Part shown: piece by piece, positions 26 through 27,206 of the stretch | How the letters are laid out: every line of letters starts with the position of its first letter | Numbering within the stretch: position 1 is the stretch's first letter | Assembly: GCA_963798375.1 (NCBI GenBank) | Contig: CAWCTG010000022.1 | Coordinates: 272,926-336,925 of the forward strand | Origin: Candidatus Binataceae bacterium | Lineage (GTDB): Bacteria > Desulfobacterota > Binatia > Binatales > Binataceae | Direction of reading: 5' to 3' | DNA: 64,000 nt | Translations under genes and position numbers: made by a program | The notes under the pieces: model-generated | Told to the model about the DNA's origin: nothing | Database searches by the model: none | The model's input: only the letters and a program-made list of their open reading frames with translations

Positions 26-784
26 TCAAAGGTCCCCCGGCCCCTCTGTCGGACAGGTGCACGTGCCTCTAAGGCCGTGATCTCTTCCGGTCAGCTGGAT
101 GAATCCACAGTAGTTTTCCAGGACAGTTGCATCACCATCGGGAAATCCGAGCGTGTTCGGATTCGGAACGATACCCGGGCCATAGGACTGGAATACTGCT
201 TCCGCAACGTTCGTCCCACCCGTAGCGAACTTATTCAGGTCATGAGTGAGAAAGGAAAGCAGCGAAGAACCCGCGGCACTGGTGAACACATGATTCGGAC
301 CGCCAAACACGAAGTTGTTCCCGCCGTTGGATCCGTTGGTCGGGTCGCAGACGGTCGCCCCGGTGCACTGGGCTGGATTAAAATAGCACGTCAAGCCTGC
401 AAGGTTGAGGTTGGTCTTGACGACCTTGATGGTGCCCGAATGGATCACACCACCCGACAGGAGGTTGTTGGTCAGTTGATGGTTTACGGAAAAGTCAAGA
501 CGCCCCGCCGGCGTGATAGGGCACGCGCAACACGCCTCCATCTCCTCCGTTGGGTCAAACACATAAATGTTGGCGCAGGCGTCAGGTGCTGCGTCGTACT
601 CGTCGGGATCCACGATTCTCAACGTATCGTCCGGCCCAACTGTGTTCGCGTTATTGAAATAGTTGACTGCGAACGGATCCAGCGCTGTTGAATTTTGCGC
701 CAAAGCAGCATCAATGGCGAAGAAAAACAACCCCACGGACGCCAGCACTGCCAGCGCCGCTTTGACTACCCCACTTCTAAACAT
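26..784 (-). CDS. Secreted Cys-rich hypothetical protein (paralogue A of a three-member family)
   Basis: The ORF track starts at 919, but ATG 784 has an AGGAGA Shine-Dalgarno and begins a signal peptide (MFRSGVVKAALAVLASVG...ALA). It carries the motif CANIYVFDPTEEMEACCACPITPAG shared with 865..1614 and 30978..32039. Confidence 0.75.
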   Translation of the reverse strand: MFRSGVVKAALAVLASVGLFFFAIDAALAQNSTALDPFAVNYFNNANTVGPDDTLRIVDPDEYDAAPDACANIYVFDPTEEMEACCACPITPAGRLDFSVNHQLTNNLLSGGVIHSGTIKVVKTNLNLAGLTCYFNPAQCTGATVCDPTNGSNGGNNFVFGGPNHVFTSAAGSSLLSFLTHDLNKFATGGTNVAEAVFQSYGPGIVPNPNTLGFPDGDATVLENYCGFIQLTGRDHGLRGTCTCPTEGPGDL

Positions 785-864
785 AACTGATTCTCCTTTT
801 CCCGCCGAATTAGCGGGTAACAAAGTCGCCCATCGAACAACCGATCGACTTTCGGTGACCCACA

Positions 865-1614
865 TCATTTGGACTTCGCTATGACGCCTGAGGTGGGCGT
901 TTCGATCGGGCACGTACATGCACCCGCGCCGCTACCCGCCGAGGTGAGCCCGGCGCACGCTACCGGCAATCCGCTGAAGTCTGAGCGGTCAGCCGGAGCT
1001 ACTTCGAACTCCGTTTCGGTCGTTTGGGTATCCTGTATGTGCTGCCCCCAAGCCGTCAGTTCGTTATATGGATCCAGTATGTTGCGCACAAAACCGTTGT
1101 AACTCCCGGCTGGATCGCAGCAGACACTGCGGCTCAAGTCGCAATTTACCCATGGGGGAATCGAATCCCCGAAATAGGCCAGGTCAGTCACAGGTTCCGA
1201 CGCAAGAATGCGGATCGAGCCGTCGGTGAGTGAGTTTATTCCTGCCGCCGCATCGCCCACCGGAAAATCCGCCAAATTATTAGTGATGCTGAGGGTCAAC
1301 AGACCATCCGCAGTCACCGGGCATCCGCAACATTCCTCCATCGCCTGGCTGGTATCAAAGACGTAGATCATCGCGCAGGTCTCGCCGACTTTAACGGCGT
1401 TGTTGGGGGCCGTTGCATTTCCCTCGAAGGGAGCCGTGATATTGACGAGCGCATTCCCCGCCACTGTTATTTGGGCGTTGCTGAAATAATTCTGCAACTC
1501 CACCCCGGACTCCTCGGACTCCGCCGCAGCCATGCTTGACCACGCGAACATCGCGATGGCCACGGCCAGCAGAACCGCCGTGCTAGTGCCAAAAACTCTC
1601 TTGCCTAAAAACAT
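865..1614 (-). CDS. Secreted Cys-rich hypothetical protein (paralogue B)
   Basis: Signal peptide ending AWSSMAAA; CAMIYVFDTSQAMEECCGCPVTADG motif; C-terminal GAGACTC; clearly homologous to 30978..32039. Confidence 0.8.
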   Translation of the reverse strand: MFLGKRVFGTSTAVLLAVAIAMFAWSSMAAAESEESGVELQNYFSNAQITVAGNALVNITAPFEGNATAPNNAVKVGETCAMIYVFDTSQAMEECCGCPVTADGLLTLSITNNLADFPVGDAAAGINSLTDGSIRILASEPVTDLAYFGDSIPPWVNCDLSRSVCCDPAGSYNGFVRNILDPYNELTAWGQHIQDTQTTETEFEVAPADRSDFSGLPVACAGLTSAGSGAGACTCPIETPTSGVIAKSK

Positions 1615-1871
1615 TTTATATTCCTCCCTGATCGTTCTAGCGCCAAAGGAATTCCAGTCGCAACGCGAGACAGTGCTATGTCATAAATCACAATCCTCCC
1701 TTCCCGCAGGATCTCCGCTGGGTAAACCCTACCCGCCGGCGGACTCCGGCACCCGTCTCGCCCGGCGTCGGGCGAGTCTAGGCGTCAGAGGTTAAGAAAA
1801 CAAGTCACAGTTCCCGCCAAATTTTTCGCACTTCCAGTCCGTAGTTTCGGCTCTTGCTTCGACGCACGTGC

Positions 1872-1901
1872 CTTATAGCAAAAAATCCAAGCGCATGACA
1901 A
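1872..1901 (-). promoter_or_regulatory. Putative sigma70 promoter, proximal copy
   Basis: Minus strand reads TTGTCA-N18-TATAAG with TG at the extended -10 position; it points toward 865..1614. Confidence 0.5.
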
Positions 1902-2002
1902 GCGGAATTTCTCTTTGCCACCGGCCCCGATTTGAGCGAAACCCGCCAGATTTTTCAGCACTTCCAGACCGCTGTTTCCGCTCCCATTTTCGAATCATGT
2001 GC

Positions 2003-2032
2003 TCTATAGCAAAAAGTTTAATCGTAAGGCAA
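2003..2032 (-). promoter_or_regulatory. Putative sigma70 promoter, distal copy
   Basis: Minus strand reads TTGCCT-N18-TATAGA with extended -10 TG, at the same position within the second repeat copy. Confidence 0.4.
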
Positions 2033-2472: not shown

Positions 2473-4545
2473 TTACTTCGAAGGCAGAGGTTCCAACAAC
2501 AGAGCCACACCCGGCTCGGCACCATTGGCAGGACGGTCCTGAGTTCCGGCGGGCGCAGATGGCGCCGCACCATTTGCAGGACGGCTTTGAGTTGCGCGGG
2601 GCTCAGATGCCGCCGCATCAGCTGGGCTACCCTCCTCGTGCTGCCGGCCAAGTCCGTCGAAGGAGGGAACGATCTCGCGGAGCATCCGAACCGTGCCGTC
2701 CGCATCTCCGGCCGCCGCCGCCCTCTCGAGCATTTCAACCCGCTGCAGCAGCGATCGCCGATGGGGCTCCTTTTCTCCGCGAACCCGCAAGATGCCGGGA
2801 ATGCCGGATGGTTCGACCTTTTCATCGGCCGCAAATGTCTCCTCGCAGAGTTTCTCGCCGGGGCGCAGGCCAACGTACTCGATCGCTATGTCTCGGTCAG
2901 GGACCAGTCCCGAAAGTTGGATCAGTTGCCTGGCCATGTCGGTTATCCGTGTCGGTTCGCCCATTTCAAGCAGGTAGATCGCGCCGGGTTTCATCAGCGT
3001 CGCCGCATGGAGGACGAGCTGCACGGCCTCCGGGATGAGCATGAGAAACCGCCGCATCGCCGGATCCGTCACCGTGACCGGCCCTCCGGCACGTATCTGT
3101 TCGAGAAATCTGGGTACGACGCTGCCGTTGCTGCCCAGCACATTGCCGAAGCGCACCGCTCCCAGCTTCAGGCCGGTTTCCTCCGCGATGGCTTTGACCA
3201 CAAGCTCCGCCGTTCGCTTTGAGGCGCCCATGACGCTGGTTGGATTGACCGCTTTGTCGGTCGAGATGAGGACCAGCCGATCGACCGGTGCACGCGCGGC
3301 AACCTCGGCCAGCACGCGGGTTCCACGCACGTTGTTCTTGATGGCCTCGCAGGGGTTGAGCTCCATCAGCGGTACGTGCTTGTGCGCGGCAGCGTGAAAC
3401 ACCAGCTTCACGTCCCATTTCCGAAACGTCTCCTCCAGCCGCTCTCCGTCACATACATCGCCAACGACCGCCGCAATCCTGCATCCCGGATTCCGGTCCT
3501 GGAGCTCCTGTTCAATGCTATACAGGCCGTTTTCATAGCGCTCGTACATGACCATGATTCGCGGTTTAAGCGCCGATATCTGACGGCACAATTCCGAGCC
3601 GATGGAACCCCCTGCCCCCGTGATCAGGACACTCTGGCCTTCGATAACGCCGCGCAGCCGAGCGGGGTCCAGTCCCACGGGCCTGCGGCAAAGCAGGTCC
3701 TCCAACGCAACGTTGCGCACGTCGCCAACCCTCACCCGCCCCTCCAGCACGCTCGACAGGCTGGGGAGAATTTTTATAGGCAGCCCAAACGGCTCGAGCA
3801 CCCTCATGATGCCGCTGATCGTCTCCGGTCCCATCCTCGGCATCGCAATCAGCACCTCCTGGGGGGCGTGCGCGGAAATGATCTCCGCCATTTCGGCCCG
3901 CGTACCGAGCACGCGAATGCCACGAATCATCCGCCCGACCTTCATGCGATCGTCATCAACGAACCCGACCGGACTGTAACCGTAATCCGGATTGTGCATC
4001 ATGTCGCGGACGATCAACTCTCCCGCGTCCCCCGCGCCAAAGATAAGCACGCGTCTGCCCGGCTCGCGGTTGCCCCAGTCATACAAGATCCGCCGAAGCG
4101 CGCGCGCCCCGCCCAGCAGCACAATTACTACTATGGTATCGATGGCGTAGACCGTTCTGGGTATCCAGGGACAATCGATCGCGAGCGCTACGAAGGTCGC
4201 GAACAGCAGCGTTCCGACGACGGCTGCGGCCGCCAGATTAATCAGGTCCCACAGACCGGTATAGCGCCAGACTCGATGATGCATTCGGAAGGCGAATGCA
4301 ACCAAAAACCTCGACACCAGTAACCACGGTACAGTTTGGAGGTACGCAGTTAGTTGTGGTGGCGGGAGTTTGCCATCGAAACGAAGAGCAAAAGCCGCAT
4401 AGTACGAGAGCGCAACCAACCCGCCTTCTATCAAATGGATCAATATCCACTGGTAATTCAGCAGCCGCCGCAAAACCAAACCCCTCACAACTGGCCGTTC
4501 CGTATGAGCGTCGAACAAGTTAACTCCCCCTCGCTGCGAACGCAA
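2473..4545 (-). CDS. Membrane-anchored nucleoside-diphosphate sugar 4,6-dehydratase (PglF/WbpM/CapD family)
   Basis: N-terminal TM helices, CoA-binding-like GAGDAG segment, ITGAGGSIGSELCRQ, HAAAHKHVPLME, STDKAVNPTSVMGASK, VRFGNVLGSNGSV and GLRPGEKL motifs. Confidence 0.95.
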   Translation of the reverse strand: MRSQRGGVNLFDAHTERPVVRGLVLRRLLNYQWILIHLIEGGLVALSYYAAFALRFDGKLPPPQLTAYLQTVPWLLVSRFLVAFAFRMHHRVWRYTGLWDLINLAAAAVVGTLLFATFVALAIDCPWIPRTVYAIDTIVVIVLLGGARALRRILYDWGNREPGRRVLIFGAGDAGELIVRDMMHNPDYGYSPVGFVDDDRMKVGRMIRGIRVLGTRAEMAEIISAHAPQEVLIAMPRMGPETISGIMRVLEPFGLPIKILPSLSSVLEGRVRVGDVRNVALEDLLCRRPVGLDPARLRGVIEGQSVLITGAGGSIGSELCRQISALKPRIMVMYERYENGLYSIEQELQDRNPGCRIAAVVGDVCDGERLEETFRKWDVKLVFHAAAHKHVPLMELNPCEAIKNNVRGTRVLAEVAARAPVDRLVLISTDKAVNPTSVMGASKRTAELVVKAIAEETGLKLGAVRFGNVLGSNGSVVPRFLEQIRAGGPVTVTDPAMRRFLMLIPEAVQLVLHAATLMKPGAIYLLEMGEPTRITDMARQLIQLSGLVPDRDIAIEYVGLRPGEKLCEETFAADEKVEPSGIPGILRVRGEKEPHRRSLLQRVEMLERAAAAGDADGTVRMLREIVPSFDGLGRQHEEGSPADAAASEPRATQSRPANGAAPSAPAGTQDRPANGAEPGVALLLEPLPSK
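2521..2616. repeat. Imperfect 48-bp tandem duplication in the dehydratase C-terminal tail
   Basis: accattggcaggacggtcctgagttccggcgggcgcagatggcgccgc followed by accatttgcaggacggctttgagttgcgcggggctcagatgccgccgc. Confidence 0.8.
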
Positions 4546-4723
4546 CTCGCGCCATCGCCCATCTTCATCAATCTTTGAGCACTTCTGCTAGCTAGAGTAC
4601 CGAATTTTCTCTTTTGACGGCACGCCTCCTCCAGCGTCCCCTGCAATGCTCTGCGCCTTCTCTCTAGGGGAAACAGATTCGGGACGCCAGCGATCATGGC
4701 ACCCCAAATGAAGGCGCCGAGGA

Positions 4724-5578
4724 TCATTTGGTGGCTTCGATGAGCATGGTCGTGCCGAGGATGGAGGGTAGTACCGGGCGGACCGTCTTCAGCACGGAAG
4801 AGAGTTTTACCGCTTGCCGAATCAGCCAGATCTTTTGGTACCGCTCCGAAAGCTGGATGTCCAGTAAGTCGCCGGCGTCGACGCACGTTCTTATGTTCAC
4901 CTTGCGGAATGCGCCAAACAGTTCACCAGCCTCGCGCTTGGTGTAGATCTTGGTGCCAAGGCTTTCATTGTGGTGGAACATAACTTCGCGCGCCGAGCGC
5001 AACGGCTTGCCGCTAAGCGGGCCGAACAGCAACCATTCAAAGAACACGGTCATGCCCCGCGCATGATAGATCATGATCCGCGCCACCCCTCCCGGTTTTA
5101 GCACCCGGTGGATCTCAGCCACCGCCTTTGGGGTGTCCGGAGTATGATGAATGACGCCGTACGAATAGACCAGGTCGAAAAAGCCGTCTTCGAACTCGAG
5201 CGCCTCGACGTCACCCACCGCAACGTCGGCGGCGAGACCGTCGAGCGTTAATCTTTCTCGCACCAGGTCAACGGAGGCCTCTGTCAGATCTCTTCCCCAC
5301 AAACTGGCTCCGCTACGAGCCCATTGAATGAAATCCGAGCCGGAGCCCAACCCTACCTCGAGGACGCGCTTTCCGGCCGCTTCGCCGAACCGCGCGAAGC
5401 CAGGAATAAAAGGCGCGTACTCATACCTCGAGCTGTCTATTTCCTCAAAGAACCTGCGCCGATCAGCAGTACTCTGGCCGAACCGAGACTCGCAGGGCTC
5501 GCTTTGCCAATGCCGCCTTACGGCGTCCTTGAGCGAGGGATTTGCTTCGTTCAGCGCTCGATAGATTTCTGCACCCAT
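4724..5578 (-). CDS. Class I SAM-dependent methyltransferase
   Basis: VLEVGLGSGSD motif I, GDVEALEFEDGFFDLVYSYGVIHH and VLKPGG. Confidence 0.9.
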   Translation of the reverse strand: MGAEIYRALNEANPSLKDAVRRHWQSEPCESRFGQSTADRRRFFEEIDSSRYEYAPFIPGFARFGEAAGKRVLEVGLGSGSDFIQWARSGASLWGRDLTEASVDLVRERLTLDGLAADVAVGDVEALEFEDGFFDLVYSYGVIHHTPDTPKAVAEIHRVLKPGGVARIMIYHARGMTVFFEWLLFGPLSGKPLRSAREVMFHHNESLGTKIYTKREAGELFGAFRKVNIRTCVDAGDLLDIQLSERYQKIWLIRQAVKLSSVLKTVRPVLPSILGTTMLIEATK

Positions 5579-5710
5579 GAATTATCCCGTAATCTTGGCG
5601 CTCCGGTGCTGGCGGTCATTGATGGCAATCCGGGGCTGAGCGCGGCGCTCGGCGCTCAAGGTGCAATGGCCTAAACTCGCGATTCAGCACTGCACCTCTT
5701 CGATTCTCTT

Positions 5711-6541
5711 CTAGCGTGATTGGTTCACCTTGGCCGAGCGAGCAACAACAACTATTTCATTCCCCAGCTTCGGTATGAAACGTGTGAGCATGCGCAGAGA
5801 CCGATCCCGCAGCGTTGAATGTCCAATGTTATGCCGATACTGATATCGTTGAATCTGGAAGCCGCAGTGCACCAGGACATCCCGAAGCTCGACGTACGAA
5901 TATTCCCGGACATGCCCCATGTGCCCCAGATTATCCAGCTTGGACCACTCTCTTGTCGGATGGGGACCTGTGCGGCCGCGCCATATAATCCTGCCCAACG
6001 CATCGATGCCGAGCCCATTCGGCATCGTCAAATACATAAATCCATCCTCGCTCAAGAGGCTCCGGATGAATGACATCGTCTTTAGAAGATCGATGCGAAG
6101 ATGTTCGAAAATCTCGCAGAACACTACGCACTGGAATTGTCCGAGCATCTTCGCCGCGGCGGAGCACGGCCGCTCCACATCAAGCTGCGCAACCTTTATC
6201 CCGAGTACTCGCTCTACGTGGCGAAATCGGTCCGGATACAAATCCACGCTCACGACTTCCACTTCCGGGTGCGCCTTCTTCATGAAGTATTCAAAAACGA
6301 AGGGTGCGCCGCCGATATTCAGGCAGCTTGAAAATTCATAGTTGCGGGTTAAGAAATCGACGTCCCATAAAAGCCGGCCGGCGTGATACCTGACATATTC
6401 CTCCGCCCACGGCCAGAGTTTCCTGTCCAGACCGAGTTCCGGGATTAATTTCAGGTAATCGGCGGTAGCCTCGTTTGCCTGCGCCCAACCATAACATTTC
6501 GCAGGCTCTGGTGAACCACTCCTTTTGCTTGGAATTCCCAT
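5711..6541 (-). CDS. Methyltransferase-domain protein
   Basis: CLNIGGAP, LDVE, VVFCEIFEHL and GHVREYS motifs; start placed at MGIPSK (the ORF track extends to 6607). Confidence 0.75.
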   Translation of the reverse strand: MGIPSKRSGSPEPAKCYGWAQANEATADYLKLIPELGLDRKLWPWAEEYVRYHAGRLLWDVDFLTRNYEFSSCLNIGGAPFVFEYFMKKAHPEVEVVSVDLYPDRFRHVERVLGIKVAQLDVERPCSAAAKMLGQFQCVVFCEIFEHLRIDLLKTMSFIRSLLSEDGFMYLTMPNGLGIDALGRIIWRGRTGPHPTREWSKLDNLGHMGHVREYSYVELRDVLVHCGFQIQRYQYRHNIGHSTLRDRSLRMLTRFIPKLGNEIVVVARSAKVNQSR

Positions 6542-6840
6542 CCTTTTGAGTCCTGATTCAGACTCGCAGCAACTTGCCGAGATTGGAGCCGGAATTTGCA
6601 TTTTCAATCCTGAATCGGATTAGCACCGACACCAGGCGTTTTGCAAATGCGAAGTTCGAGCCCAGTCTTAAGTCCAAAGGGCTCTCCAGCGCGCTGCAAC
6701 GAGCCAGTTCTGCCTCGAGTTGGCATAAGATACCCTTATCGAACTCGCGGTGGCCTCTGCGGATCCAATTGGAGTAGTCGAGCAGCCTGCTATCAATCGC
6801 TGACATGAAGACCGTTACCCTTCGATCAAGAACAGGCTGG

Positions 6841-7998
6841 CTATTCGCTCGCGCGCACTACATCGCGCCGAAGGCTAGCGCTTCCAACCCGGAGTAGGAG
6901 ATCCTCAACTGCGCCCAGCACCTCCGCTACGGTAATTGAGGTAATGCAGCGCTTGGCGTGCACGGTACATTCCGACAACCCGCAACCCGCGCATGGGACA
7001 TCGTGAAAGATAACTCTGTGCTGAATGCCGTAGGGAAACCATTGCCCCGCCGGGTTCCGGGCGGTATAGATACCGACGCAGGGAACGCCCGCGGCGGCGG
7101 CCAGATGTATCGGCCCGCTGTCGTGGCCCAGGTAAACGTCTGCGTGCTTCATCACGGCAGCGGTTTCCCGTATGCCAAGGCGCCCGCAGAGATTCACGCT
7201 GGGTCCGTGCCATCGTGTCCGCATTGCTTCCGAGCGCTCGTATTCGCTGCCAGCGCCAACGACGGCAAGCCCGTAGCCGTCGGCCCTGACAGTGAGTTCC
7301 TCGATCATCGCCAGCCACTTCTCGGCGCCCCAATCCTGGATCCCGAGCGCCGAGCCGATGGAACAGACGATTAAACCTGCCGTTCCCCTTGCCGGCTTTA
7401 CCGCTTCCAGCGCCCGCTCGCGCTCCGTCGGTGACAGGCGCAAATCCCAACTGGCTGAATCGTCGAGCCGAGCGTCGCCCAAGCTGCGCACCAATCGGGC
7501 GAGCCGCTCAGCCTCGTACTCGTAGCGCCTGCGCTCGGGAACCCAGCGATGCGGTGCGGTTCGCTCTGCGAGTGACATGTTCAGCATCGCTCGCACACCG
7601 CAAAGTTTGAAGAACGCCAGCTCCGAGAAGTGCTGTTTGAACTCACGGACCTCCGTCAAAACGATCAGCAAATCCGGCCTCCAGCTGCGGATTCGCCGGC
7701 ACAGATCCCACCTTGTGCGCAGTCGCCCTCGAACATCGTGGTGATCGACCTCGAAATAATCATCGACCAATCCGGTACCTTCGAGAATTGCCTTGACCGG
7801 GACCGAAACCTTCGCCACCGGCGAGTTGGTCAGCATTCGCCGCTCAGCGTTTGGAAACCGGCGCGCAATCAGATGAAAGCACGGCAGACAGAGAATGGTG
7901 TCGCCGACACTTCCAGGGCGGAATATCAGCACGCGCGAAGGATCTTCCGAAACCATGGACGCGAGTGATTTTATTCTTGCTTGAGGACGGGTCGGCAT
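6841..7998 (-). CDS. Glycosyltransferase family 9 (heptosyltransferase-like)
   Basis: RPGSVGDTILCLP, NLCGRLGIRETAAVM, GHDSGPIHLAAAAGVPCVGIY and Cys-rich C-terminal CAGCGLSEC. Confidence 0.9.
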   Translation of the reverse strand: MPTRPQARIKSLASMVSEDPSRVLIFRPGSVGDTILCLPCFHLIARRFPNAERRMLTNSPVAKVSVPVKAILEGTGLVDDYFEVDHHDVRGRLRTRWDLCRRIRSWRPDLLIVLTEVREFKQHFSELAFFKLCGVRAMLNMSLAERTAPHRWVPERRRYEYEAERLARLVRSLGDARLDDSASWDLRLSPTERERALEAVKPARGTAGLIVCSIGSALGIQDWGAEKWLAMIEELTVRADGYGLAVVGAGSEYERSEAMRTRWHGPSVNLCGRLGIRETAAVMKHADVYLGHDSGPIHLAAAAGVPCVGIYTARNPAGQWFPYGIQHRVIFHDVPCAGCGLSECTVHAKRCITSITVAEVLGAVEDLLLRVGSASLRRDVVRASE

Positions 7999-8095
7999 GG
8001 CTGATTCATCGCCCTCGTCTCCCTCTCAGAACATGAGAACCCTCACACCAAGACCACGCGGTCTGCAAACGCAAAGTTTGAGCCCGGACTTGAGT

Positions 8096-9193
8096 CTAAA
8101 TCTTGGCTTCTAACAGAGCGGCGGCCTTTCGCCAGAAAGCCGGCATAGCCGCCACTTTGAGGCAGCCCCAGAGCGAACCCAGCCCATACATGCTATGAAA
8201 AGCCGCGAACACAAGCGGTGCCATGAACGCGTATCTTCCATCTCGCGCTCTTCTCGCGACGTCAATCGATGCGGCCAGGTCCGCGACAAGATAGCTTCCC
8301 AGGATAGCAAGCAGGAGCCACCGCGCCGCCGGCACAAACACAGCTGCTAGCGCGGCTGCCACTACGCCGCTCACAAAAGCAAGCGGTACCAGATGCCGCG
8401 GCGAAACTGGAAGGTGGCCGGCGTACGCGAAGCCCAAAACTACCCAGCACCCATCGCTGAAGGCCCTCTTAAGAAACGAGGTCCAGTCGGTACGTTGATA
8501 ATAGAAGCATGTAGCGCCGGGCACCAGCAGCATCTTGCCGCCGGCACGGTGCAGCCGGTTGTTGAAATCCATGTCCTGGGCGCGCGTCAGTCGCTCGTTG
8601 AAACCGCCCAGTTCGAGCAGCTTTTCCTTCCGGCAGCAGAAGAACGGCACCGCATCTACCGGCTCGGGCTCGGTCAGATTGACGTATCTGTAACGCGACC
8701 CTCCGACCCCGAACCGATGGGACATGCACTCTACGATTACCTTACCCCTCAGGCTGTCGTCGCGGGGTATACTGCGCCGCATCCCGCCCACGTTATCGGC
8801 ATCATAAAGTCTCAGCGCCTCGACACACCGGCGAACGTACTCTGCCGAATACATGGCATGCGCATCGATCCGCATCACAATTTCGCCACGGCTGGCGGCG
8901 ATTCCGATGTTCAGCGCATAGGGCGTAACCCGATGCGGGTTGTCGATAAGCCGGATGAACGGGTATCTCTGCGTGTACTCGGTGACGATCTCCCGAGTGC
9001 CATCGTCACTCATTCCGTCAACGATAAGAATTTCCAACTCTTCCTTTGGAAAGTCATTAGCCAGGACGCTGTCGAGACATTTTCCGATGAACTCCCGCTC
9101 GTTGCGGCAGGGAATGACGATCGACAGCCGGGCAGTACGAACGGTCCGCTCTGCCGTGTCGACAATCCTGCGCAAGTCACTCCCACCTATCAT
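8096..9193 (-). CDS. Glycosyltransferase family 2 (ExoA-like)
   Basis: SIVIPCRNE, VDGMSDDGT, RIDAH DxD-like motif, GGFNERLTRAQD and C-terminal TM helices. Confidence 0.92.
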   Translation of the reverse strand: MIGGSDLRRIVDTAERTVRTARLSIVIPCRNEREFIGKCLDSVLANDFPKEELEILIVDGMSDDGTREIVTEYTQRYPFIRLIDNPHRVTPYALNIGIAASRGEIVMRIDAHAMYSAEYVRRCVEALRLYDADNVGGMRRSIPRDDSLRGKVIVECMSHRFGVGGSRYRYVNLTEPEPVDAVPFFCCRKEKLLELGGFNERLTRAQDMDFNNRLHRAGGKMLLVPGATCFYYQRTDWTSFLKRAFSDGCWVVLGFAYAGHLPVSPRHLVPLAFVSGVVAAALAAVFVPAARWLLLAILGSYLVADLAASIDVARRARDGRYAFMAPLVFAAFHSMYGLGSLWGCLKVAAMPAFWRKAAALLEAKI

Positions 9194-9933
9194 GCAATTT
9201 TGACTATCACAGCAGAGCCGGCCTTATCGGGCATCGGGATTGGGAACTCGCGCTTGCCCGCGAAAAACTCTTCGACCGCGCGCCGCGCACCCGGCCACGC
9301 GTTGTAATCATGCATCACGATCACGCCGCCGGCCGGGACTCTAGGATAGAAGAATTCCAGGCCCGCCATCGTGGGCTCGAAAAGGTCCGCGTCGAGATGC
9401 ACGAATGCGAACTCTGTCCGCTCGATTTCGGGCGTGACGGTAGCAGGGAAGCGGCCGGCATGAACGATGACGTTGCCTCGGGGCTCGATGGTACGCATTA
9501 CCGCCTTCACGCTGGTATCAGCGAAACCGCCGGATTGTATCGGTTCCTCGATCTCACCTTCATCGAAGCCGCTGAAGGTATCGAAAAGGTGTAGAGTGCG
9601 CTCCGGGGCATACTGATGAATGAGCCGCGCCGTGAGTCCTTGGTAAACTCCCAGCTCGGCGAAATCACCTCGCACTCGCCGCACGATCACGTCGCGGAGC
9701 AGAAGCACAAGCATATCGCGGCGCACCGTGTCCCACCATTTCAGGTCCATGATTCTGCGACCTTCCGGGATCAGGAAGCCGTGCGGGAACTGAGGGTTGT
9801 GCCAAATCGAGCGCGGGTCGATATCCATGCGGCTCTGAAGAAAGAAACGGTGCGGACCGCCGAGCAAAGGATGGATTTTGCGCGCTAGGTGGCGGCTGGG
9901 ATCGCGAATGAACCTGTGGAGCTTCGAGGCCAT
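9190..9933 (-). CDS. TylF/MycF/NovP-family O-methyltransferase
   Basis: GDFAELGVYQG, LFDTFSGF, FVHLDADLFEPT and GGVIVMHDY. Confidence 0.9.
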   Translation of the reverse strand: MASKLHRFIRDPSRHLARKIHPLLGGPHRFFLQSRMDIDPRSIWHNPQFPHGFLIPEGRRIMDLKWWDTVRRDMLVLLLRDVIVRRVRGDFAELGVYQGLTARLIHQYAPERTLHLFDTFSGFDEGEIEEPIQSGGFADTSVKAVMRTIEPRGNVIVHAGRFPATVTPEIERTEFAFVHLDADLFEPTMAGLEFFYPRVPAGGVIVMHDYNAWPGARRAVEEFFAGKREFPIPMPDKAGSAVIVKIA

Positions 9934-10053
9934 GAGAGTCCGCCCTTTATCGAAATCAGCGCGGTCAAGTCAAGGAGCGTTTGGCAGGTGTCCTTTGTAG
10001 AGCGGAGAGTGTGACTATGCCGTACGAAGTAGTTGTTGAAGGTGGTGTGCCCA

Positions 10054-10992
10054 TCAACTATCAGGCATCTCCTCGCGCCGGTGCGGATCCGGTCGAAGGA
10101 CGAACAACGCACCGCGTACCGCCAACTCATCCACCGTGTAGCGTCGGAACCCCGCCGCCAGACCCAACCCTTGCACCTGCTTCAGGTCTTCATCGGTGGG
10201 CCCAATCCTCTTCTGGTGGAGCACTGCCAGTCCCGCCTCCTGGAAAGCAGCAACATAGTCGGGATGGCGAAGCCGATTCTGGTAATGAAGATAGGGGTTG
10301 AAGAATCGCCATGTCCGGTCCGAGTATCTCAGGAAGTTGTACGCGGAAATACTCTCGTCAGAGTAAGAGTAATGGTCCTGGTAGTCGATTCGGAATAGCA
10401 TCAGCCCATCAGGCTTCAGCACGCGCCGGCATTCCGCGAGAATTCCCTTCAGTTCCGATTGCGGGATGTGTTCCAGCGTGTTGAATGCGACCACGCAGTC
10501 GATCGTTCCATCGCGCAATCCAGTAGAAGCGGCATCCTGCGGAGCGCGATAATCAATTCCGTAATACTCGCGCAGAGTGGCCAGTGCCCGCCCCCAATCA
10601 CTCTCCAGCATTCGCGGAGGCTGCCGGCACAGTTTAAGTTCCCCGGACATCCGTCCGAGCTGATTCAATACGTGATTCACAAGTTCGGTCCTGACCAGGC
10701 ACCGGCGGTCGGCTAGAATCTGGTGCTCGACCCCAAGCGCCCAAAGGATCAGAGGCAATCGCAGTTCCCACCCAGCCCCGAACTGGTAAATGAGGGCCTG
10801 GCTCAGCGGAATGGCGAGATGACAGTTCACTGCATCGATATGTTCCGCGGCGGCTTTCCTGAGCCGCCGCAAAAACTCGTCGCTCGGCGGAGTACTACGC
10901 GTCACATACCTCTGCGCGTAGTAGTTCGCTGTTTCGCCGAGCGGAGCTAGCGAGAGTCCAAGCTGACACAGCGCCTTTACTCGCCAGTTCAT
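10054..10992 (-). CDS. Class I SAM-dependent methyltransferase
   Basis: YQFGAGW, DCVVAFNTLEHIP, RVLKPDG and IDYQDHY. Confidence 0.8.
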   Translation of the reverse strand: MNWRVKALCQLGLSLAPLGETANYYAQRYVTRSTPPSDEFLRRLRKAAAEHIDAVNCHLAIPLSQALIYQFGAGWELRLPLILWALGVEHQILADRRCLVRTELVNHVLNQLGRMSGELKLCRQPPRMLESDWGRALATLREYYGIDYRAPQDAASTGLRDGTIDCVVAFNTLEHIPQSELKGILAECRRVLKPDGLMLFRIDYQDHYSYSDESISAYNFLRYSDRTWRFFNPYLHYQNRLRHPDYVAAFQEAGLAVLHQKRIGPTDEDLKQVQGLGLAAGFRRYTVDELAVRGALFVLRPDPHRREEMPDS

Positions 10993-11019
10993 GCTGCTAC
11001 CGAGTTATCTGTACCTGAC

Positions 11020-12364
11020 TCAGGACTCAGACAAGGAGCCTCTAGGTTCTGCGCTGGAAACCGACCACAGGTAGCAGGCAAACAAGAACCAAGCCGCGTC
11101 AGTCACGGTGCTGCGTAGCCCGAACGAGGTCACGTACAGGGCGATCTCGTAGTACAAGACGATCACCGGAATATACCCAGCGTTGTGCCCGCACACCTTG
11201 ACATACGCAAGGCTCGCCAAGACAGACAAAATCAAAAGAAAAATTGACGACCCGGGCAGTGTCCAATCGAACGCCATCTGCCGCAGCAAGCTGAACACAT
11301 TTGTGAGTTCGCTGCCGTTCGCGTTCGCGTAGGGCGAGACGTTAATCGAGTTCGGGATTTCGCTGGACGATGTATCCAAGCCACCCTGCGGGCCCGTCGA
11401 AACAGTACCGCCCTAGAGCCGGTGCTCTCCACACGTCCCAGTTCTCACTGAACCACCTGGAAAACGCTGCCGCGTAACCCACGTACTGCACTTCGGCGGT
11501 GCGGACGCTGAACTTCACCAGTACCTCTTCACGTTGGGTCGACACAGGAATTGCACCCGGAGCAAAGACACCCATACGTGCTACTTGCACCATCACATAC
11601 AAAGCCGTCAACGCTACGAGACCCGAACCCAACGTTGTCAACGCGCGGCGCCAGTTGCGCCACAGCCGCCGGTCGCCAATATACGCGCGCGTCGCGCAAT
11701 AGCTCGCAATCCAGTTGATAACGAAGCAAATCAGGCAGGTCCTCGCGCCGAGTACGAAGGTTTCCAGCAGCGCCGGCACTACCCCACTGAGGGAGGCAAG
11801 CCGCTCGAGCCGCGAGCCCCTGCGCGCGAAAATCATCCCTCCCAGGTAGCCAGCGAGATAGATAAACACGCTCAGAATCAGGAACGAGGTCGGCTCCCGG
11901 TAGTTCGCATCGGTGTATCTCATCCCCGCGAAATGCGACGCAACCAAACTCACTACGCTGACCGACACAAAAGCCCACAGCGACTGGCCCGACGTCGAGA
12001 CGAGATATACCACCCCAGCCGTACCCAGGATTGTTGCAGCGAGCAGAAGCGGGAGTGCGAGCGGCAGAGTCAGCCCTTGCGACGCTACTACCTCAGAGGC
12101 GGAGGTCCGATCCGAGGAACCCTCGCCGTTCCAGACCAGGAGACCCCCTAAATGCGCGGTACAACTCATGAAGAGTATCCATAGGATCCCCGGCCAGATC
12201 CGAAATTCGGGCGTGATCGAAAGACTCAGTACGCCTACTGTGGCCCACATTAGGCCGAAGAAAGCCCCGGGGGCCAGCCAGCTGCCAAGCTGATTGCGCG
12301 CCAGGCTAGCCTGCAGGATGATTAAGCCGACGACTGCTGCAGAAAGTGGCCAAGTGGTGTCCAT
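11020..12364 (-). pseudogene. wzy: O-antigen/EPS polymerase Wzy-like, frameshifted near 11342-11380 (real lesion or sequence error)
   Basis: The multi-TM ORF 11342..12364 stops at NPELD*. The overlapping ORF 11020..11379 supplies the expected Wzy C-terminus (TNVFSLLRQMAFDWTLPG followed by TM helices). Confidence 0.7.
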
Positions 12365-13358
12365 CGAAGTGCGTTTAGTCCCGGTCGCTCACCTTTGGAG
12401 ACGAAATCGCTTCTGCGTACCCGTTAAAAGTCTTGTAATCGAAACAACCCGGCTCAATGTTCGCCATTTGGAGCCGCAAATGTTGGCAGTGTTTCAGTTT
12501 GGGGTTTCTATCAATACCCATTCGGTTTTTACCGTAGCCGGCTCTGCTCAAGAGATTTGAAGAGCAGCTTAGCCTTGAGACCAATCAACGGCGGACACAA
12601 ACGATGGATCAAGAAGTACAACGAGGGGCACCATCTGGAGACGGCGCGTCCGACGGGTGGAATGAGCGCGCCGCCCGCACTCCTAACGATATCACAACCT
12701 GGATATAGCGAACGTACACATCGCCGCGTCACGGCCTGGTATCCGCGTCCGCCGTAGCGCCAATCGACGATCAAGAGGAAGCCGCCCGGTTTGGTGACTC
12801 GCGCCATCTCGCGAGCGATGGTTGCGCGGATGGCCGTTTGGGTCAGTTGGAAGAACATGGTTGATTCGATCACTAGATCAAAAGTGGCGTCAGGGTAAGG
12901 AATGTTGCAGGCATCCGCCACAATCAGAGTGCAAGGCGGAAGCCTCTGCCGTCCCCGTTCGATGGCGAGAGGACGAATATCGATCCCGTGCATCATTTGA
13001 GCCGGGAAGCCGAGTTCCAGCAGACGGAGCAGGCTCGCGCCGGCGCCGCAGCCGACATCAAGGATAGCAGCGTTACGACTCGAGCGTAGGCTCGCGAGGG
13101 GCCTCAAGACTTCGCGAATAGCGCGCTGATTGGCAAAATGTTGAAAGACGAGACCTCGGTTGAGTAGCAGGTCGTCGCGGTCAGCTCCTTTCTCGGCAAT
13201 TCTGCGCGAGCAAAATTCCTGAGCCTCGATAGCGTTCATGCACCCTCCAAAACCTCGGGGGTCCGATCTAATAAGTACGCGCTCTCGGCCATTTAGCACC
13301 TGAGGCTCGTGGGCTTGCGCAGTCACGCTAAATTCATCGAAGCGCGTTTAGTCCGGTC
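12362..13358. repeat. 24/25-bp direct repeat pair flanking a methyltransferase (12362-12386 and 13335-13358)
   Basis: catcgaagtgcgtttagtcccggtc versus catcgaagcgcgtttagtcc-ggtc (one mismatch, one indel). Confidence 0.75.
12529..13239 (-). CDS. Class I SAM-dependent methyltransferase
   Basis: ILDVGCGAG, GIDIR, DACNIPYPDATFDLV and VTKPGG; start placed at MNAIEA. Confidence 0.88.
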   Translation of the reverse strand: MNAIEAQEFCSRRIAEKGADRDDLLLNRGLVFQHFANQRAIREVLRPLASLRSSRNAAILDVGCGAGASLLRLLELGFPAQMMHGIDIRPLAIERGRQRLPPCTLIVADACNIPYPDATFDLVIESTMFFQLTQTAIRATIAREMARVTKPGGFLLIVDWRYGGRGYQAVTRRCVRSLYPGCDIVRSAGGALIPPVGRAVSRWCPSLYFLIHRLCPPLIGLKAKLLFKSLEQSRLR

Positions 13359-13382
13359 TTTGAGTGTGCTCAGCCGGGCGGC

Positions 13383-14399
13383 TCAGATCACATAACCGTA
13401 CTGGTGCATCAGCGGGCTCGTTATCACGCTCACTACCTTGCGGTCGCTTTCCTTCATTTTCTGACGCCACTCATCGTCGATCCGAAGGTCCACACCACCC
13501 GAGCTGAACTTCACCGGGTTACCGCTGACTGCGTGATTGACCCCGAGTTGGACGTGGGTCCCCTGAATCATCGAGAGATCGGGTCTGCCAAGGCCGAGCC
13601 GCTCCAGCGCACCCCCGATCGCTTCTCTCGGATCTCGCACGAGATCCTCATACCGTAACCGGGTATAAGGGATCCGGCGGTGCCTCGAGTGGGGGATCCC
13701 CGAAGCCCAGGCATTGCGCCAGGTCCACTGCAGCGCACTTGCCACAGCTCCTTGCCGAAGCAGAATCCGCGTGGCGCCGTCCTCGTCGAATGCGAGTTTC
13801 CGGCTTGCGCTCGAAATCCATTCCGGTTTGCGATGTTGCGAGGCGTCGTTGTCGCTGCGAAATATAGGTTTACCGCGTGAATTCGAGAACGCAACGGCCC
13901 GGCTGTCCCTCACCAGATGGAGCACCCTCAAATCGATGCCCGGAATTCGAGCCAGAATCAGCGCTTGTGACACTTCGCGGCTTGAGTCCACCACGACGCT
14001 CTTGCCCGCCACCTCGCGGATAGCGCGGTATAATCTGCTCAAGGCATCCTCGTAAACCCGTGGCAGTTTACTCCCGAGCAGTTCCGCGGGGACCCGGTTC
14101 AGCAGCATTAGCATCGGCGTATACCGTTCCCGAGCCAGCGACTTGTGCATACTCAGCATCGCGCTCACGTCCAACTGCTCGAACGAGCCGAACGCCTTCT
14201 CGACCACAGCACGCCAGAACTCGCAATGCCGGAAGCGCTCGCCGCATCCGCACGGTTCGTTCTGCTCGAAGGCCTCGTGCCAGATGTTCCTGAGCTCGCC
14301 AACATAGACCGAGTCACTCAAACCATTGAGTATCTGCCCGAGCAGAGTACCTCCGCTGCGGCCATCACCGGCAATAAAAACTACTCGGCTGCCTTCCAT
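13383..14399 (-). CDS. Sulfotransferase family protein
   Basis: 5'-PSB motif IAGDGRSGGTLL, 3'-PB motif HLVRDSRAVAFS and LRYEDLVRDP. The start is uncertain (ORF open to 14546). Confidence 0.88.
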   Translation of the reverse strand: MEGSRVVFIAGDGRSGGTLLGQILNGLSDSVYVGELRNIWHEAFEQNEPCGCGERFRHCEFWRAVVEKAFGSFEQLDVSAMLSMHKSLARERYTPMLMLLNRVPAELLGSKLPRVYEDALSRLYRAIREVAGKSVVVDSSREVSQALILARIPGIDLRVLHLVRDSRAVAFSNSRGKPIFRSDNDASQHRKPEWISSASRKLAFDEDGATRILLRQGAVASALQWTWRNAWASGIPHSRHRRIPYTRLRYEDLVRDPREAIGGALERLGLGRPDLSMIQGTHVQLGVNHAVSGNPVKFSSGGVDLRIDDEWRQKMKESDRKVVSVITSPLMHQYGYVI

Positions 14400-15770
14400 G
14401 ATATTCTCGGAAGGGTCAATCCAAATAACCGTATCCCTAAGTCTCTGCTCATTACCCGATGTAACCACGCGTTCCACAAACACATGCTCGCCGCGGTTGC
14501 AATTGCAGCGCCTACCGACCCGAGCTGCGGCACCAAAACGATACATAGTGCCACATCAGCGAGAGTCGCCCATGCGAAAATCCTGGCGACGGCGTGTTCC
14601 CGCCCGGTTACTATCGCTAGTATACCGACCGGCCCGGCCGCCGAATTAACCAGATTCCCGACCACCAGAATCGCCAAGGCACTGTATCCTGCCGAGAATC
14701 CTGGTCCAAACAGCCCCAGAATGCGACTGCCCCCCGTCCACAGTACGAGCGCGACCCCCAGCGACGGCCAGACCGCCCATGCCACGATGGTCCGGGCCAA
14801 CAAATCGAATCTGGTCCGATCGCCGCGACTCCACGCTTCTGACAGGATCGGTCCGCCCCTCGCGTTGACCACACTCAGGACGAGGCTCCCCAGCCCTGCG
14901 GTCTTAGCCGCTGCTGAATACAGCCCAGCCTCCCCAGGCGACCTGAACAGGCCCAGCGTCAGGAGATCGGCTCGGGACAGGACAACGTAACACCCTGTCG
15001 CCAATAGCAGCGGCAGGGACACTCTCAGCCACGAAACGGTCTCGAATCTTGGCTTCGATCCCCGCGCTGCCATCGGAAGCACGATTTGTGAAACAGCAAA
15101 CTGCAGGATTAGCGTGACGGAGAGAGAAAAGTATCTCGCCATCATCAACAGGGTCGCGCTGAGATGCCCGCGCATACCCTTCAGCGCCAGCGCGGATCCC
15201 AGGCACAGCAAAGGATCGGCCAGAAACGGAAACAGATAGGCAAGAGCGACGCGGTTGAGAGAGTGGCCGATCTCGCTTTCCAGATAAGGACAGGGCTGTG
15301 GCCGGGACGAGCCAGGTCCCGAGTAACAGCACTACAATGTCGAGGCTGCCCGGTCGTACGATCGACAAAACAATAGTCAGCAGCGCCGCCAATGCAATGC
15401 CGGCCGCGACGGTAAGCTGCCTGCTGCGCCGCACTATTCCCCGTAGTCCAGTCCAATCATCTCTCGCCACGTAGCCGGGCACAAACCGCATCAGTGCGAT
15501 AGGCAGCCCAAGTCCACTGACCATTGCCAGGATTTGCCCAAGCGCGATCGCGTAAACGTAGTTGCCATACTCGGCCGCTCCCATCCAGCGCGCGAAAAGC
15601 ACCTGCGAGCCGTACTGCAGGCCCGCGCTCGCAATCCAGATGAGAGCGACCGCCGCAGAACCCGCCAGCGGGTGCGGCACCACGCCATTTGCTTCAGGCT
15701 CGGGAGCGAGCTCCCTTCCCGCGCCAAGCACTCGGGGCGGTTGTGCGGAACCAATGCTTTCCTTGCGCAA
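14381..15770 (-). pseudogene. wzx: Wzx-like flippase/polysaccharide biosynthesis protein, frameshifted near 15285
   Basis: The N-half (QVLFARWMGAAEYGNY...LGLP) and C-half (RADLLTLG, EAGLYSAA, LVPQLGSVGAAIAT) lie in different frames. Removing one base at tcctta|t|ctggaa joins them. Confidence 0.75.
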
Positions 15771-15878
15771 TACCCAGGACCAGTTGTCAGAGGCGGAATG
15801 GACCCGGCGGCTCGACGATGCCGGCGATGAGGACCAGGCGACGGTGCACTTTGCAAAACCCCCGGGTGTACATAATGG

Positions 15879-16838
15879 CTAGCGGGCCGGGTCTCCGCGC
15901 GTTTCGCGGCCGGAGGCCAGCGCCAGCTCGCGCTCGCCTTCACCATAGGTCCATGGCTCCCGAGTAAGTATGATGAGGCAGGAAATGAACAACGTAATCA
16001 CAAACCCAAGACCGCTGACCATGAGCACACTCGGAGAATACGGCTTATCCGACGCCTTCGGAGCATCTATTACCTTAAAGGCGAAATTAGCATCCACCAT
16101 AGCGAGCTTCTGTTGTTGCAACTGGTCGGCGATGAGCTGAAAAAGCTGCTGCTGGAGCAGAGTGTCGGGAGTAGATCCCGCCTCGTCTCTTAGTGATTTC
16201 GCAGTCGCGGTGGTGGTTCTGACCTGTTCCTCTCGAAGTTTTGCTCTCAAGTCATCAATGTAGAAGCCGAGTATCGACTGCGCCAGCATGCGGTCGCGAT
16301 CCTGGTAGTAAAGCGTTAAGTTCCCGGTGCTGATCGAATAGTCGCAGCTGAAGCGTTTCTGCAGCGTTCGAAATATCTCCCAGGAAGGATCCGGGTGTTG
16401 ATTCCACGGACGCCAATGCTTCGTTCCCAGCAACCCCCGTTCGAGATGGTGGTTTTTGACCATCGCCAAGCTGAATTGGAAGCTCTCGACGGTCGACATG
16501 AGCTCTTCAGCCCGCGAGGTAGGCAAAATCTGCTCGACCAAAGAGGAGACGTTGAGCGGCTGCTCCATGGCGGCCAACCGGTTTGGCATCACCTCGGATA
16601 CCGGGCGCAGCACGGCTTCCGCCCGATACCACTTGGTCATCACGAACATCGCCAGGAAAGCGCAACCCAACGTAGCAACCGATGTTGCACACGCCAACAA
16701 TTTCCAACTGCGAGCCAGCACAACCAACGCCGGCAAGCGCGGCGGTTGGAAGTGGCCGGCTCGGCGCTCCGCCGGTTGAGCCCGTGCCTCAGGCGCTACG
16801 GATGACGCGTGAGCCATCGCGGAATTTTCGCCTCCCAC
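15879..16838 (-). CDS. Wzz/polysaccharide co-polymerase (chain-length determinant)
   Basis: N-terminal TM after VLARSWKLL, YRAEAVL, central coiled coil, FKVIDAPKAS.KP.SP and C-terminal TM. Confidence 0.8.
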   Translation of the reverse strand: MGGENSAMAHASSVAPEARAQPAERRAGHFQPPRLPALVVLARSWKLLACATSVATLGCAFLAMFVMTKWYRAEAVLRPVSEVMPNRLAAMEQPLNVSSLVEQILPTSRAEELMSTVESFQFSLAMVKNHHLERGLLGTKHWRPWNQHPDPSWEIFRTLQKRFSCDYSISTGNLTLYYQDRDRMLAQSILGFYIDDLRAKLREEQVRTTTATAKSLRDEAGSTPDTLLQQQLFQLIADQLQQQKLAMVDANFAFKVIDAPKASDKPYSPSVLMVSGLGFVITLFISCLIILTREPWTYGEGERELALASGRETRGDPAR

Positions 16839-16993
16839 CGTGCAATCTTAGCATGAATTCCATGGCGCCACCTCGGTGCTCGTGCCGGTTGCTGACCTCT
16901 CTGCCAAGCAGCCCATGTCCAAATCCCGACGCGCGCTGAAGCGGGCATCTGATCTACGCCGAGCACGTCATCGTTTCCTGATTATCTATCACC

Positions 16994-18151: not shown

Positions 18152-18152
18152 T

Positions 18153-19277: not shown

Positions 19278-19278
19278 C

Positions 19279-20277: not shown

Positions 20278-20283
20278 GAATGT

Positions 20284-21255: not shown

Positions 21256-21265
21256 CCTGACTCCC

Positions 21266-21898: not shown

Positions 21899-21958
21899 GC
21901 GCCAGCATCGCTTAGACTCTCCGGACTTCTCTCCAAATCTCGCAAACGGGCTATCCCT

Positions 21959-22762: not shown

Positions 22763-22851
22763 GGGTTGACTCCAAGCTAACTCACTCTAAGGTTATTTGT
22801 GCGGACCGCGCCTGTTGCGAGCCCTGAGCTTCTGGCAGGGGACTTCCAGCC

Positions 22852-24732: not shown

Positions 24733-24797
24733 GGATTAACTTGTGGCTATTGACGCAAGCGGTCTCGCGCACGAATTCGGGATCGTTTGGCGTCTGA

Positions 24798-26474: not shown

Positions 26475-26515
26475 GCTCGCGAGCAGTGTGGCATGGACGA
26501 ATTTGATGCGAACAG

Positions 26516-27199: not shown

Positions 27200-27206
27200 G
27201 CTCGCC

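Follow-up and report, generated by a model that had tools for sequence, protein, structure and literature searches.

A large, unnamed family of cysteine-rich and probably exported proteins represented by three genes around a polysaccharide locus in a Binataceae bacterium

What kind of protein is encoded by three related genes that lie on both sides of a polysaccharide locus in Candidatus Binataceae bacterium? The genes, here F1, F2 and F3, are found in a 64,000-nucleotide stretch of contig CAWCTG010000022.1 (assembly GCA_963798375.1, positions 272,926 to 336,925), referred to below as the window. The original prediction, made from the letters of this stretch, had described them as an unrecognised family of secreted proteins and proposed an abundant surface-layer or envelope scaffold that may be decorated by the product of the polysaccharide locus. 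On the sequence evidence, the three genes belong to a large, unnamed and undescribed family built on a domain of ~170 residues, here named the CCxC domain. As to what the F proteins do, an abundant, non-enzymatic structural or binding module of the envelope or of the extracellular matrix is the reading to which we give an even chance of being right. The genes and their proteins are as follows.

26..784, minus strand: F1 (protein P0001, 252 residues), with a signal peptide and a predicted CCxC-type eight-cysteine beta-sandwich domain carrying one extra cysteine pair; 10 cysteines
865..1614, minus strand: F2 (P0002, 249 residues), with a signal peptide and a CCxC domain; 10 cysteines
30978..31685, plus strand: residues 1-236 of F3 (P0003, 353 residues; whole gene 30978..32039), with a signal peptide and a CCxC domain
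31686..32039, plus strand: C-terminal Thr/Ala/Pro/Ser low-complexity tail of F3, ~115 residues, ending in ...TPTATPTPG

The homology of the three paralogues is real, and the elements that they had been said to share were all located. They start with VNYFNNAN, QNYFSNAQ and QNYFSNAN (shared NYFxNA), have in common the motif CAxIYVFD-x7-CCxCPxT..G.L (CANIYVFDPTEEMEACCACPITPAGRL / CAMIYVFDTSQAMEECCGCPVTADGLL), and carry GTCTC, GACTC and GVCTC (GxCxC) close to the C-terminus. In a six-frame translation of the whole window the family motif occurs 3 times. P0002 and P0003 are 65% identical (E 3e-97), and P0001 matches P0002 at 38% identity over the N-terminal core only (E 2e-14). All three N-termini, judged by eye, show a K/R n-region, a hydrophobic core and an AxA site, and this segment forms a low-confidence N-terminal helix in the AlphaFold model; export of the F proteins by the Sec pathway is thus a probable reading of the signal peptides. 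The mature proteins would be small (~22-25 kDa) and cysteine-rich (8-10 Cys). The Thr/Ala/Pro tail that had been noted for the family is restricted to F3 (31686..32036), and both F1 and F2 lack a Thr-rich tail; neither a terminal domain nor an anchor motif was found in the tail of F3. Within the repeat coding for this tail (31750-31800), DNA contigs from a soil run show a joint that goes back 45 and others that skip, which suggests length variation from strain to strain, or assembly slippage. Linkers of this kind also occur in other secreted proteins of the window, one being an NHL-repeat protein (34393-36819; linker 36184-36339, minus strand) and another the product of an open reading frame (ORF) at 62446-63390 (linker 62695-62832, plus strand), and such linkers are a habit of the genome as a whole, not a mark of the CCxC family.

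The family reaches far beyond this genome. An exhaustive phmmer search recovered 1005 clusters (50%-identity representatives) at E<=1e-3, with most members secreted and ~200 residues long; 97 homologues were found for F2, and the C-x14-CCxC spacing was unchanged in 239 of 239 sequences checked. Annotated members are named only 'hypothetical protein' and come from metagenome-assembled genomes (MAGs), and the clusters belong almost entirely to Acidobacteriota (Terriglobia) and Binatia. No domain match to the F proteins was obtained from Pfam-A (scanned to E<=1), NCBIfam, PHROG or PADLOC, the sole PHROG match falling in the low-complexity tail of P0003, and profile searches of all PDB sequences were empty for the family, so that the initial impression of an unrecognisable family was borne out. 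No description of it was found in the literature on Binatia, Acidobacteria, cysteine-rich proteins or metaproteomes. It is not a phage family and is essentially absent from viral contigs; a scan of these gave 2 matches, and the one looked at proved to have arisen by chance within a ribonucleotide-reductase region.

The distribution of the family was further followed with an exact degenerate DNA pattern for the CCxC motif, which matched at least 120 loci in species-representative genomes (~1 chance match expected). The loci were analysed as fixed 8-kb blocks, so that the neighbour frequencies given below for the 120 loci listed are rough lower bounds and the taxonomic spread is that of a biased sample. 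Nearly all of them belong to Terriglobia (Acidobacteriaceae, Terriglobales, Bryobacterales and Ca. Sulfotelmatobacter) or to Binatia, and all are from MAGs. Many genomes have several family loci, and tandem arrays reach five copies.

The cysteine pattern of the family is C-x14-CCxC ... C ... C ... CxC over ~170 residues. Fungal-type hydrophobins, which need C-CC-C-C-CC-C within ~100 residues, were discarded as candidates, as the pattern differs. Pairing was read from the co-variation of cysteines across 338 non-redundant domains. Of the 325 domains that possess the Cys of CAxIYVF (C1), 319 have an odd number of Cys between CCxC and the W.TH strand, and 12 of the 13 that lack C1 have none in that interval; between W.TH and GxCxC a single Cys is found in 330 of the 338. 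This parity indicates that C1 pairs with a loop Cys (C5) before W.TH, that additional Cys come in pairs, and that the CCxC strand is stapled to the Cys of the C-terminal helix and to the terminal CxC. A canonical domain would thus contain four disulfides, and each of the window proteins five. The same parity is in keeping with an oxidising compartment and speaks against free thiols, which bears on a first alternative, in which the F proteins are not surface components but soluble periplasmic proteins, acting for example in redox buffering, metal binding or stress protection, or as folding substrates or partners of a DsbA-like enzyme. The domain has a nearly invariant His, which together with CCxC and CxC could in principle bind metal, and family genes are co-encoded with a thiol-disulfide oxidoreductase; however, strictly even cysteine numbers point to structural disulfides. 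We consider this alternative unlikely, also in view of the fusions and the copy numbers described below.

AlphaFold2, run with the family alignment, gave a predicted local distance difference test score (pLDDT) of 81.8 and a predicted template-modelling score (pTM) of 0.78 for P0002, and 91.0 and 0.83, respectively, for a canonical acidobacterial member of 192 residues. In both models a beta-sandwich is followed by a long C-terminal helix. The only consistent Foldseek neighbour of both, a weak one, is the TM1070/Anabaena sensory rhodopsin transducer (ASRT) structure (PDB 1nc7, 2ii7-2iia), with FlgD and carbohydrate-binding modules coming next. For the canonical member the match to TM1070 has E 8.8e-4, probability 1.0 and a template-modelling (TM) score of 0.68 on the target and 0.43 on the query; for the P0002 model E is 0.013, and the TM scores of both models range over 0.61-0.68 when normalised to the 116-residue target and over 0.39-0.43 when normalised to the query. 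The likeness lies in a small all-beta sandwich core. TM1070/ASRT proteins are cytoplasmic and cysteine-poor. The CCxC family differs in being exported, in its eight conserved Cys and in an additional C-terminal helix, and there is no sequence relationship (no Pfam match at E<=1; empty PDB profile searches), so that the models are best taken as a fold-level resemblance rather than as membership. No enzyme fold was found among the Foldseek neighbours of either model, and a Foldseek search against viral structures returned nothing significant. On this one point the earlier proposal is supported, as only small beta-sandwiches and no enzyme fold appeared; it is on these confident models and neighbours that the non-enzyme reading is based.

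Additional clues came from the genes and domains that accompany the CCxC domain. Neighbours in the 120 blocks were clustered using a crude longest-ORF caller, and the recurrent families were checked with Pfam. A gene for a DsbA/Thioredoxin_4 protein with a SurA-like N-domain (SurA_N_3) is present in 24 blocks, and in 22 of these it immediately follows a family gene of the same strand. LuxR/GerE-type regulators of ~180 residues recur in 30 loci, and a PilZ protein of ~105 residues in 15. The typical acidobacterial cassette consists of a secreted protein without Pfam match, two F genes, the DsbA-like gene and a giant immunoglobulin-repeat protein, with LuxR, PilZ and a large F protein encoded divergently. 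The DsbA-like gene also lies in the locus of Ca. Binatus soli (L001), and directly downstream of the F1 orthologue in a closer relative (L130); by synteny in these close relatives, that of the window is probably located just beyond its left edge. In nine acidobacterial loci (L008, L013, L072, L074, L081, L089, L108, L121 and L125), a conserved secreted protein of 210-330 residues (e.g., L081 1667-2308) is encoded just upstream of the F-F-DsbA genes; it has the motif P.VTY.NGQLTI.A.N.SL..VL.A.S..TGA.I.FP, a Gln/Pro-rich tail and no Pfam match. In Binatia, what comes after the DsbA-like gene or after the F array is a gene for a secreted protein of 248-321 residues, also lacking any Pfam match (L001 12960-13781; L005 12802-13548; L130 11963-12928), which may be another conserved unnamed partner.

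The CCxC domain is also found as part of larger proteins. Large acidobacterial members have Big_2 repeats, sometimes a Kelch propeller, and the CCxC domain at the C-terminus, and most of the complete ones carry lipoprotein signals (lipoboxes). Of 27 such C-terminal CCxC domains, 25 group in a single clade (support 100/97), from which the lipoprotein-tethered form appears as an old, specialised type. Some members have DUF7933 or DUF11 repeats N-terminal to the CCxC domain. In Binatia the order is reversed, with an N-terminal CCxC domain, a (TP)n or (TA)n linker and then an ice-binding-like domain (Ice_binding, Pfam E 1.8e-40) or another unnamed domain; P0003 is of this tailed type, with the linker only. 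In some Binatia members and neighbours (L052 2649-5276; L029 4960-7995), long (TP)n linkers lead to domains with repeated 'CC(T/A)G.G.G.C' cysteine motifs, and one F paralogue (L004 11626-12360) has this short motif as an N-terminal insertion. The fusions to DUF7933, DUF11, Big_2, Kelch and Ice_binding, together with the (TP)n/(TA)n linkers and the lipoboxes, indicate a modular use outside the cytoplasm. They also count against the periplasmic alternative, because ice-binding-like, Pro/Thr-linker and long lipoprotein Big_2 fusions are typical of extracellular proteins, as does a lineage-specific tandem expansion of up to five copies, which would be unusual for housekeeping periplasmic factors. 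That alternative nevertheless draws support from the lack of any conserved outer-membrane export machinery near the genes of the 120 loci. PEP-CTERM/exosortase substrates, which are often encoded beside EPS (exopolysaccharide) loci and need a PEP motif, a transmembrane helix and a basic tail at the C-terminus, were another rejected candidate, given that the proteins end a few residues past GxCxC, or in ...TPTATPTPG in P0003.

An analogy could be drawn with the two-domain adhesins and the pilins of chaperone-usher pili, because the CCxC domain is found both as free tandem subunits and as the terminal domain of large proteins, the latter version forming a clade of its own. However, usher, chaperone and sortase are not among the recurrent neighbours of the 120 loci, which are LuxR-type, DsbA-like, PilZ and immunoglobulin-repeat proteins and the unnamed secreted protein. 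Another comparison concerns the chlamydial OmcB, a cysteine-rich envelope protein with DUF11 repeats. Both are cysteine-rich envelope proteins of diderm bacteria, and some CCxC members have DUF11/DUF7933 repeats; on the other hand, there is no homology in the CCxC domain, whose cysteine parity argues for intramolecular and not intermolecular bonds.

The expression of the pair was examined as well. The tandem promoters of the original prediction, and the features to which they belong, are these.

1615..1996, minus strand: 5' leader of the F2-F1 transcript, ~250-380 nucleotides depending on the promoter used, from RNA contigs and conservation
1872..1901, minus strand: proximal promoter-like module, with -35 TTGTCA (1901-1896), an 18-nucleotide spacer and a TGn-extended -10 TATAAG (1877-1872)
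2003..2032, minus strand: distal promoter-like module, with -35 TTGCCT (2032-2027), an 18-nucleotide spacer and a TGn-extended -10 TATAGA (2008-2003)
30871..30899, plus strand: F3 promoter-like site TTGACA-17-GATATT, with 10/12 consensus matches

The two modules upstream of F2, read from the sequence, are ~90-nucleotide repeats with extended -10 boxes (TGCTATAGA, TGCTATAAG), and both are conserved in relatives (L001/L002). A consensus scanner calls neither, the proximal one being missed because the last base of its -10 box is not T. In a wetland metatranscriptome (X5) from a ~98%-identical strain, RNA contig depth is 93 over 1-1312, 79 over 1420-1633 and 46 over 1612-1980, against 0-2 over 2001-2800, 4-17 for the neighbouring WbpM-like gene and 0-17 overall for the next 4 kb, values to be read as well above the neighbours and not as a genome-wide rank; two DNA runs are flat over the same region. 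The RNA contig thus ends at 1980, just downstream of the predicted distal start, and depth rises stepwise towards the genes, a limit and a rise that fit the two promoter-like modules. In four more metatranscriptomes (wetland, soil and peat) contigs lie within 1-1800 only, with none in 2000-6000. In all five, RNA coverage of the first 6 kb is thus either confined to the tandem pair or by far deepest over it, and strong transcription of F2 and F1 in situ is supported. An acidobacterial three-gene array from a palsa MAG behaves similarly, with identical contigs in four peat runs at 2-10x the depth of most neighbours. An Rfam scan of the whole window gave no family match, and the long leader is therefore not a known riboswitch. 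Sigma-54 promoters upstream of the F genes were tried as well and rejected (66 matches observed and 68 expected, none suitably placed).

Multiple promoters and long leaders are typical for genes of very abundant surface proteins. Surface-layer (S-layer) genes, in particular, have several promoters, long stabilising 5' leaders, very high expression and a conserved N-terminus with a variable remainder. The F2-F1 pair resembles them in its two promoter-like modules, its leader of ~250-380 nucleotides, its high relative transcription and its conserved N-terminal half. The resemblance does not extend to the proteins, as the F proteins have a mature size of ~22-25 kDa and 8-10 Cys, and no S-layer homology (SLH) or other anchoring domain was detected in them by scans of the profile libraries.

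The history of the pair adds a further element. In the family tree P0002 and P0003 are sisters within a Binataceae clade, whereas P0001 sits on a long branch among small acidobacterial members, as a deeply diverged paralogue of F2; the conserved F2-F1 pair therefore unites two anciently separated types. Compared with Ca. Binatus soli, the two F proteins in syntenic positions are 51-55% identical in amino acids and the flanking enzymes 86-89%. Between the same two genomes, the non-coding leader with both promoter-like modules (window 1615-2130, minus strand; L001 9420-10060) shows a nucleotide identity of ~79-85%, and the regulatory region upstream of F2 is thus better conserved than the genes that it drives. 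Across the family, the N-terminal half is the more conserved part of the proteins. In the closer relative L130 the F genes are conserved like their flanks, with a ratio of nonsynonymous to synonymous substitutions (dN/dS) of 0.45 and 0.27-0.58 for the neighbours. Rapid evolution by positive selection, which had been entertained as an explanation, is weakened accordingly, since the low identity of 51-55% has no counterpart at short range; that the leader stayed in place while the genes behind it were exchanged for another type of the family seems a better explanation than steady fast evolution. A second alternative is connected with this divergence, namely that the F proteins are secreted antagonistic proteins, bacteriocin-like or lectin-like toxins diversifying under conflict between strains. 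The tandem arrays of diverged paralogues, the LuxR-type regulators nearby and the low identity to Ca. Binatus soli beside well-conserved flanking enzymes would agree with it. Nevertheless, dN/dS is unremarkable, neither immunity-like nor dedicated exporter genes recur in the 120 loci, transcription that is constitutive and very high across five unrelated field samples is atypical of bacteriocins, and the most conserved lineage of the family is the lipoprotein-tethered one. We regard an antagonistic function as very unlikely.

The polysaccharide locus between the F genes is given here as context.

2473..30032, minus strand: Wza/Wzi-type polysaccharide locus of ~27.5 kb between the F genes, from Pfam matches

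That F genes occupy both flanks of a genuine Wza/Wzi-type locus was borne out by Pfam. The locus encodes Polysacc_synt_2, GT9, GT2, six methyltransferases, a sulfotransferase, aminotransferases, Bac_transf, an asparagine synthase, Wzi and Poly_export with SLBB. It is unusually rich in modifying enzymes, among them a TylF-type O-methyltransferase, the sulfotransferase and two aminotransferases, and also has an E1 dehydrogenase alpha/beta pair, the asparagine synthase and an SLT transglycosylase; the Poly_export protein adjoining this part has 941 residues and six SLBB matches. A Wzx-like flippase (Polysacc_synt) occurs in two pieces, as overlapping ORFs at 14904-15770 and 14381-15211 on the minus strand that each match one half of the Pfam model; a frameshift, a pseudogene or an error in the consensus could account for this.

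A third alternative, close to the original prediction, is an S-layer or envelope scaffold decorated by, or binding, the polysaccharide of this locus. Apart from the flanking position and the high transcription of the tandem pair, it can invoke synteny, because the order polysaccharide locus, gap, F2, F1 and DsbA-like gene is kept in Ca. Binatus soli and in L130, with the F genes beside the WbpM-like end, and because in a further, distant Binatia contig an F array adjoins WbpM-like, aminotransferase and transketolase genes. The Thr-rich tail of F3 could moreover bear O-glycans. When the 120 loci were searched by tblastn with the 22 locus proteins of the window, however, only 9 had any match and 111 had none; four of the nine are generic methyltransferase matches in Acidobacteria, and among Binatia 5 of 29 loci have a polysaccharide-gene match. 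Wza, Wzi, the initiating sugar transferase (Bac_transf) and GT2 had no match in any locus. Two more distant tail-bearing homologues from Binatia sit among unrelated genes. With homologues mostly unlinked to such loci, neighbourhood conservation and the proposed functional tie of the family to polysaccharide loci are not supported, and the adjacency is a Binataceae-specific synteny at the level of the lineage rather than a property of the family. Decoration of the F proteins by the locus product is unsupported; no O-oligosaccharyltransferase of the Wzy_C/PglL type was found in the locus ORFs scanned, two of which had no Pfam match, F1 and F2 offer no Thr-rich tail, and T/A linkers, as mentioned above, are not confined to this family. 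With their small size and 10 Cys, the F proteins also differ from typical S-layer proteins. A scaffold tied to the glycan of this locus is, in our view, quite unlikely.

Duplication at a larger scale is suggested by one Binatia contig of 340 kb (L004/L005), in which one F array abuts WbpM-like, aminotransferase and transketolase genes and a second, nearly identical array lies ~10 kb away, behind a histidine kinase and a sigma-54 response regulator/activator. Both arrays begin with an identical protein of 259 residues, and they look like a recent segmental duplication.

Returning to the F proteins as a structural or binding module, the following sequence of events may be proposed. The protein would be exported by the Sec pathway, as its signal peptide suggests, and would fold into the predicted beta-sandwich and C-terminal helix. 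Four intramolecular disulfides (five in the window proteins) would then lock the fold, one joining C1 to the Cys in the loop before W.TH, and three stapling the CCxC strand to the Cys of the helix and the terminal CxC. These bonds would be made by the dedicated DsbA-like oxidoreductase with a SurA-like N-domain that is encoded directly downstream. The folded domain, having no catalytic features, would most likely act in the envelope or matrix as a module of great stability with a structural or a binding role. In its free form it would be made as subunits in large amounts, with F2 and F1 as two anciently diverged types kept as a pair. Tethered forms would be represented by F3 with its Thr/Ala/Pro stalk, by Binatia relatives with an ice-binding-like or other domain, and, in Acidobacteria, by the domain at the end of lipoprotein Big_2 stalks.

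A precedent for such proteins is provided by RbmA, Bap1 and RbmC of Vibrio cholerae, biofilm matrix proteins encoded between the vps-I and vps-II clusters. These are also small, secreted, non-enzymatic beta-sandwich proteins beside an exopolysaccharide (EPS) locus, and their c-di-GMP (cyclic di-GMP)/LuxR-type regulation recalls the PilZ and LuxR neighbours of the CCxC family in Acidobacteria. There is, however, no match in sequence or fold, the EPS adjacency of the CCxC family is not family-wide, and polysaccharide binding is only putative. The family itself is new and has no solved relative, while its general kind, secreted disulfide-rich beta-sandwich proteins of the envelope or matrix, is already known.

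Several points weigh against the structural or binding module. The F proteins could be retained in the periplasm, outer-membrane secretion or assembly machinery does not recur beside the family genes in the 120 loci, transcription of F3 is not elevated, and contig depth, on which the abundance of the pair rests, is a poor measure of expression. A more ambitious proposal, which we think unlikely, is that Acidobacteriota and Binatia build a hitherto unrecognised surface structure from CCxC domains. Free subunits, of two or more ancient types such as F2 and F1, would assemble into a coat or fibre kept rigid by four disulfides in each subunit, lipoprotein Big_2-CCxC proteins would root it, tailed versions with ice-binding-like, Cys-rich or other heads would decorate it, and a DsbA/SurA-like factor would fold its parts, with LuxR and PilZ (c-di-GMP) switching it on in Acidobacteria.

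In soils, peat and wetlands, few bacteria are as abundant, or as rarely cultured, as Acidobacteriota and Binatia. A profile hidden Markov model of the family would be worth building, and its disulfide pattern and DsbA partner ease expression and structure solution. If the CCxC proteins are a major component of the envelope or matrix of these bacteria, they would bear on attachment, aggregation, resistance to desiccation or phages, and the stabilisation of soil organic matter, and the family would be a marker for metaproteomics.

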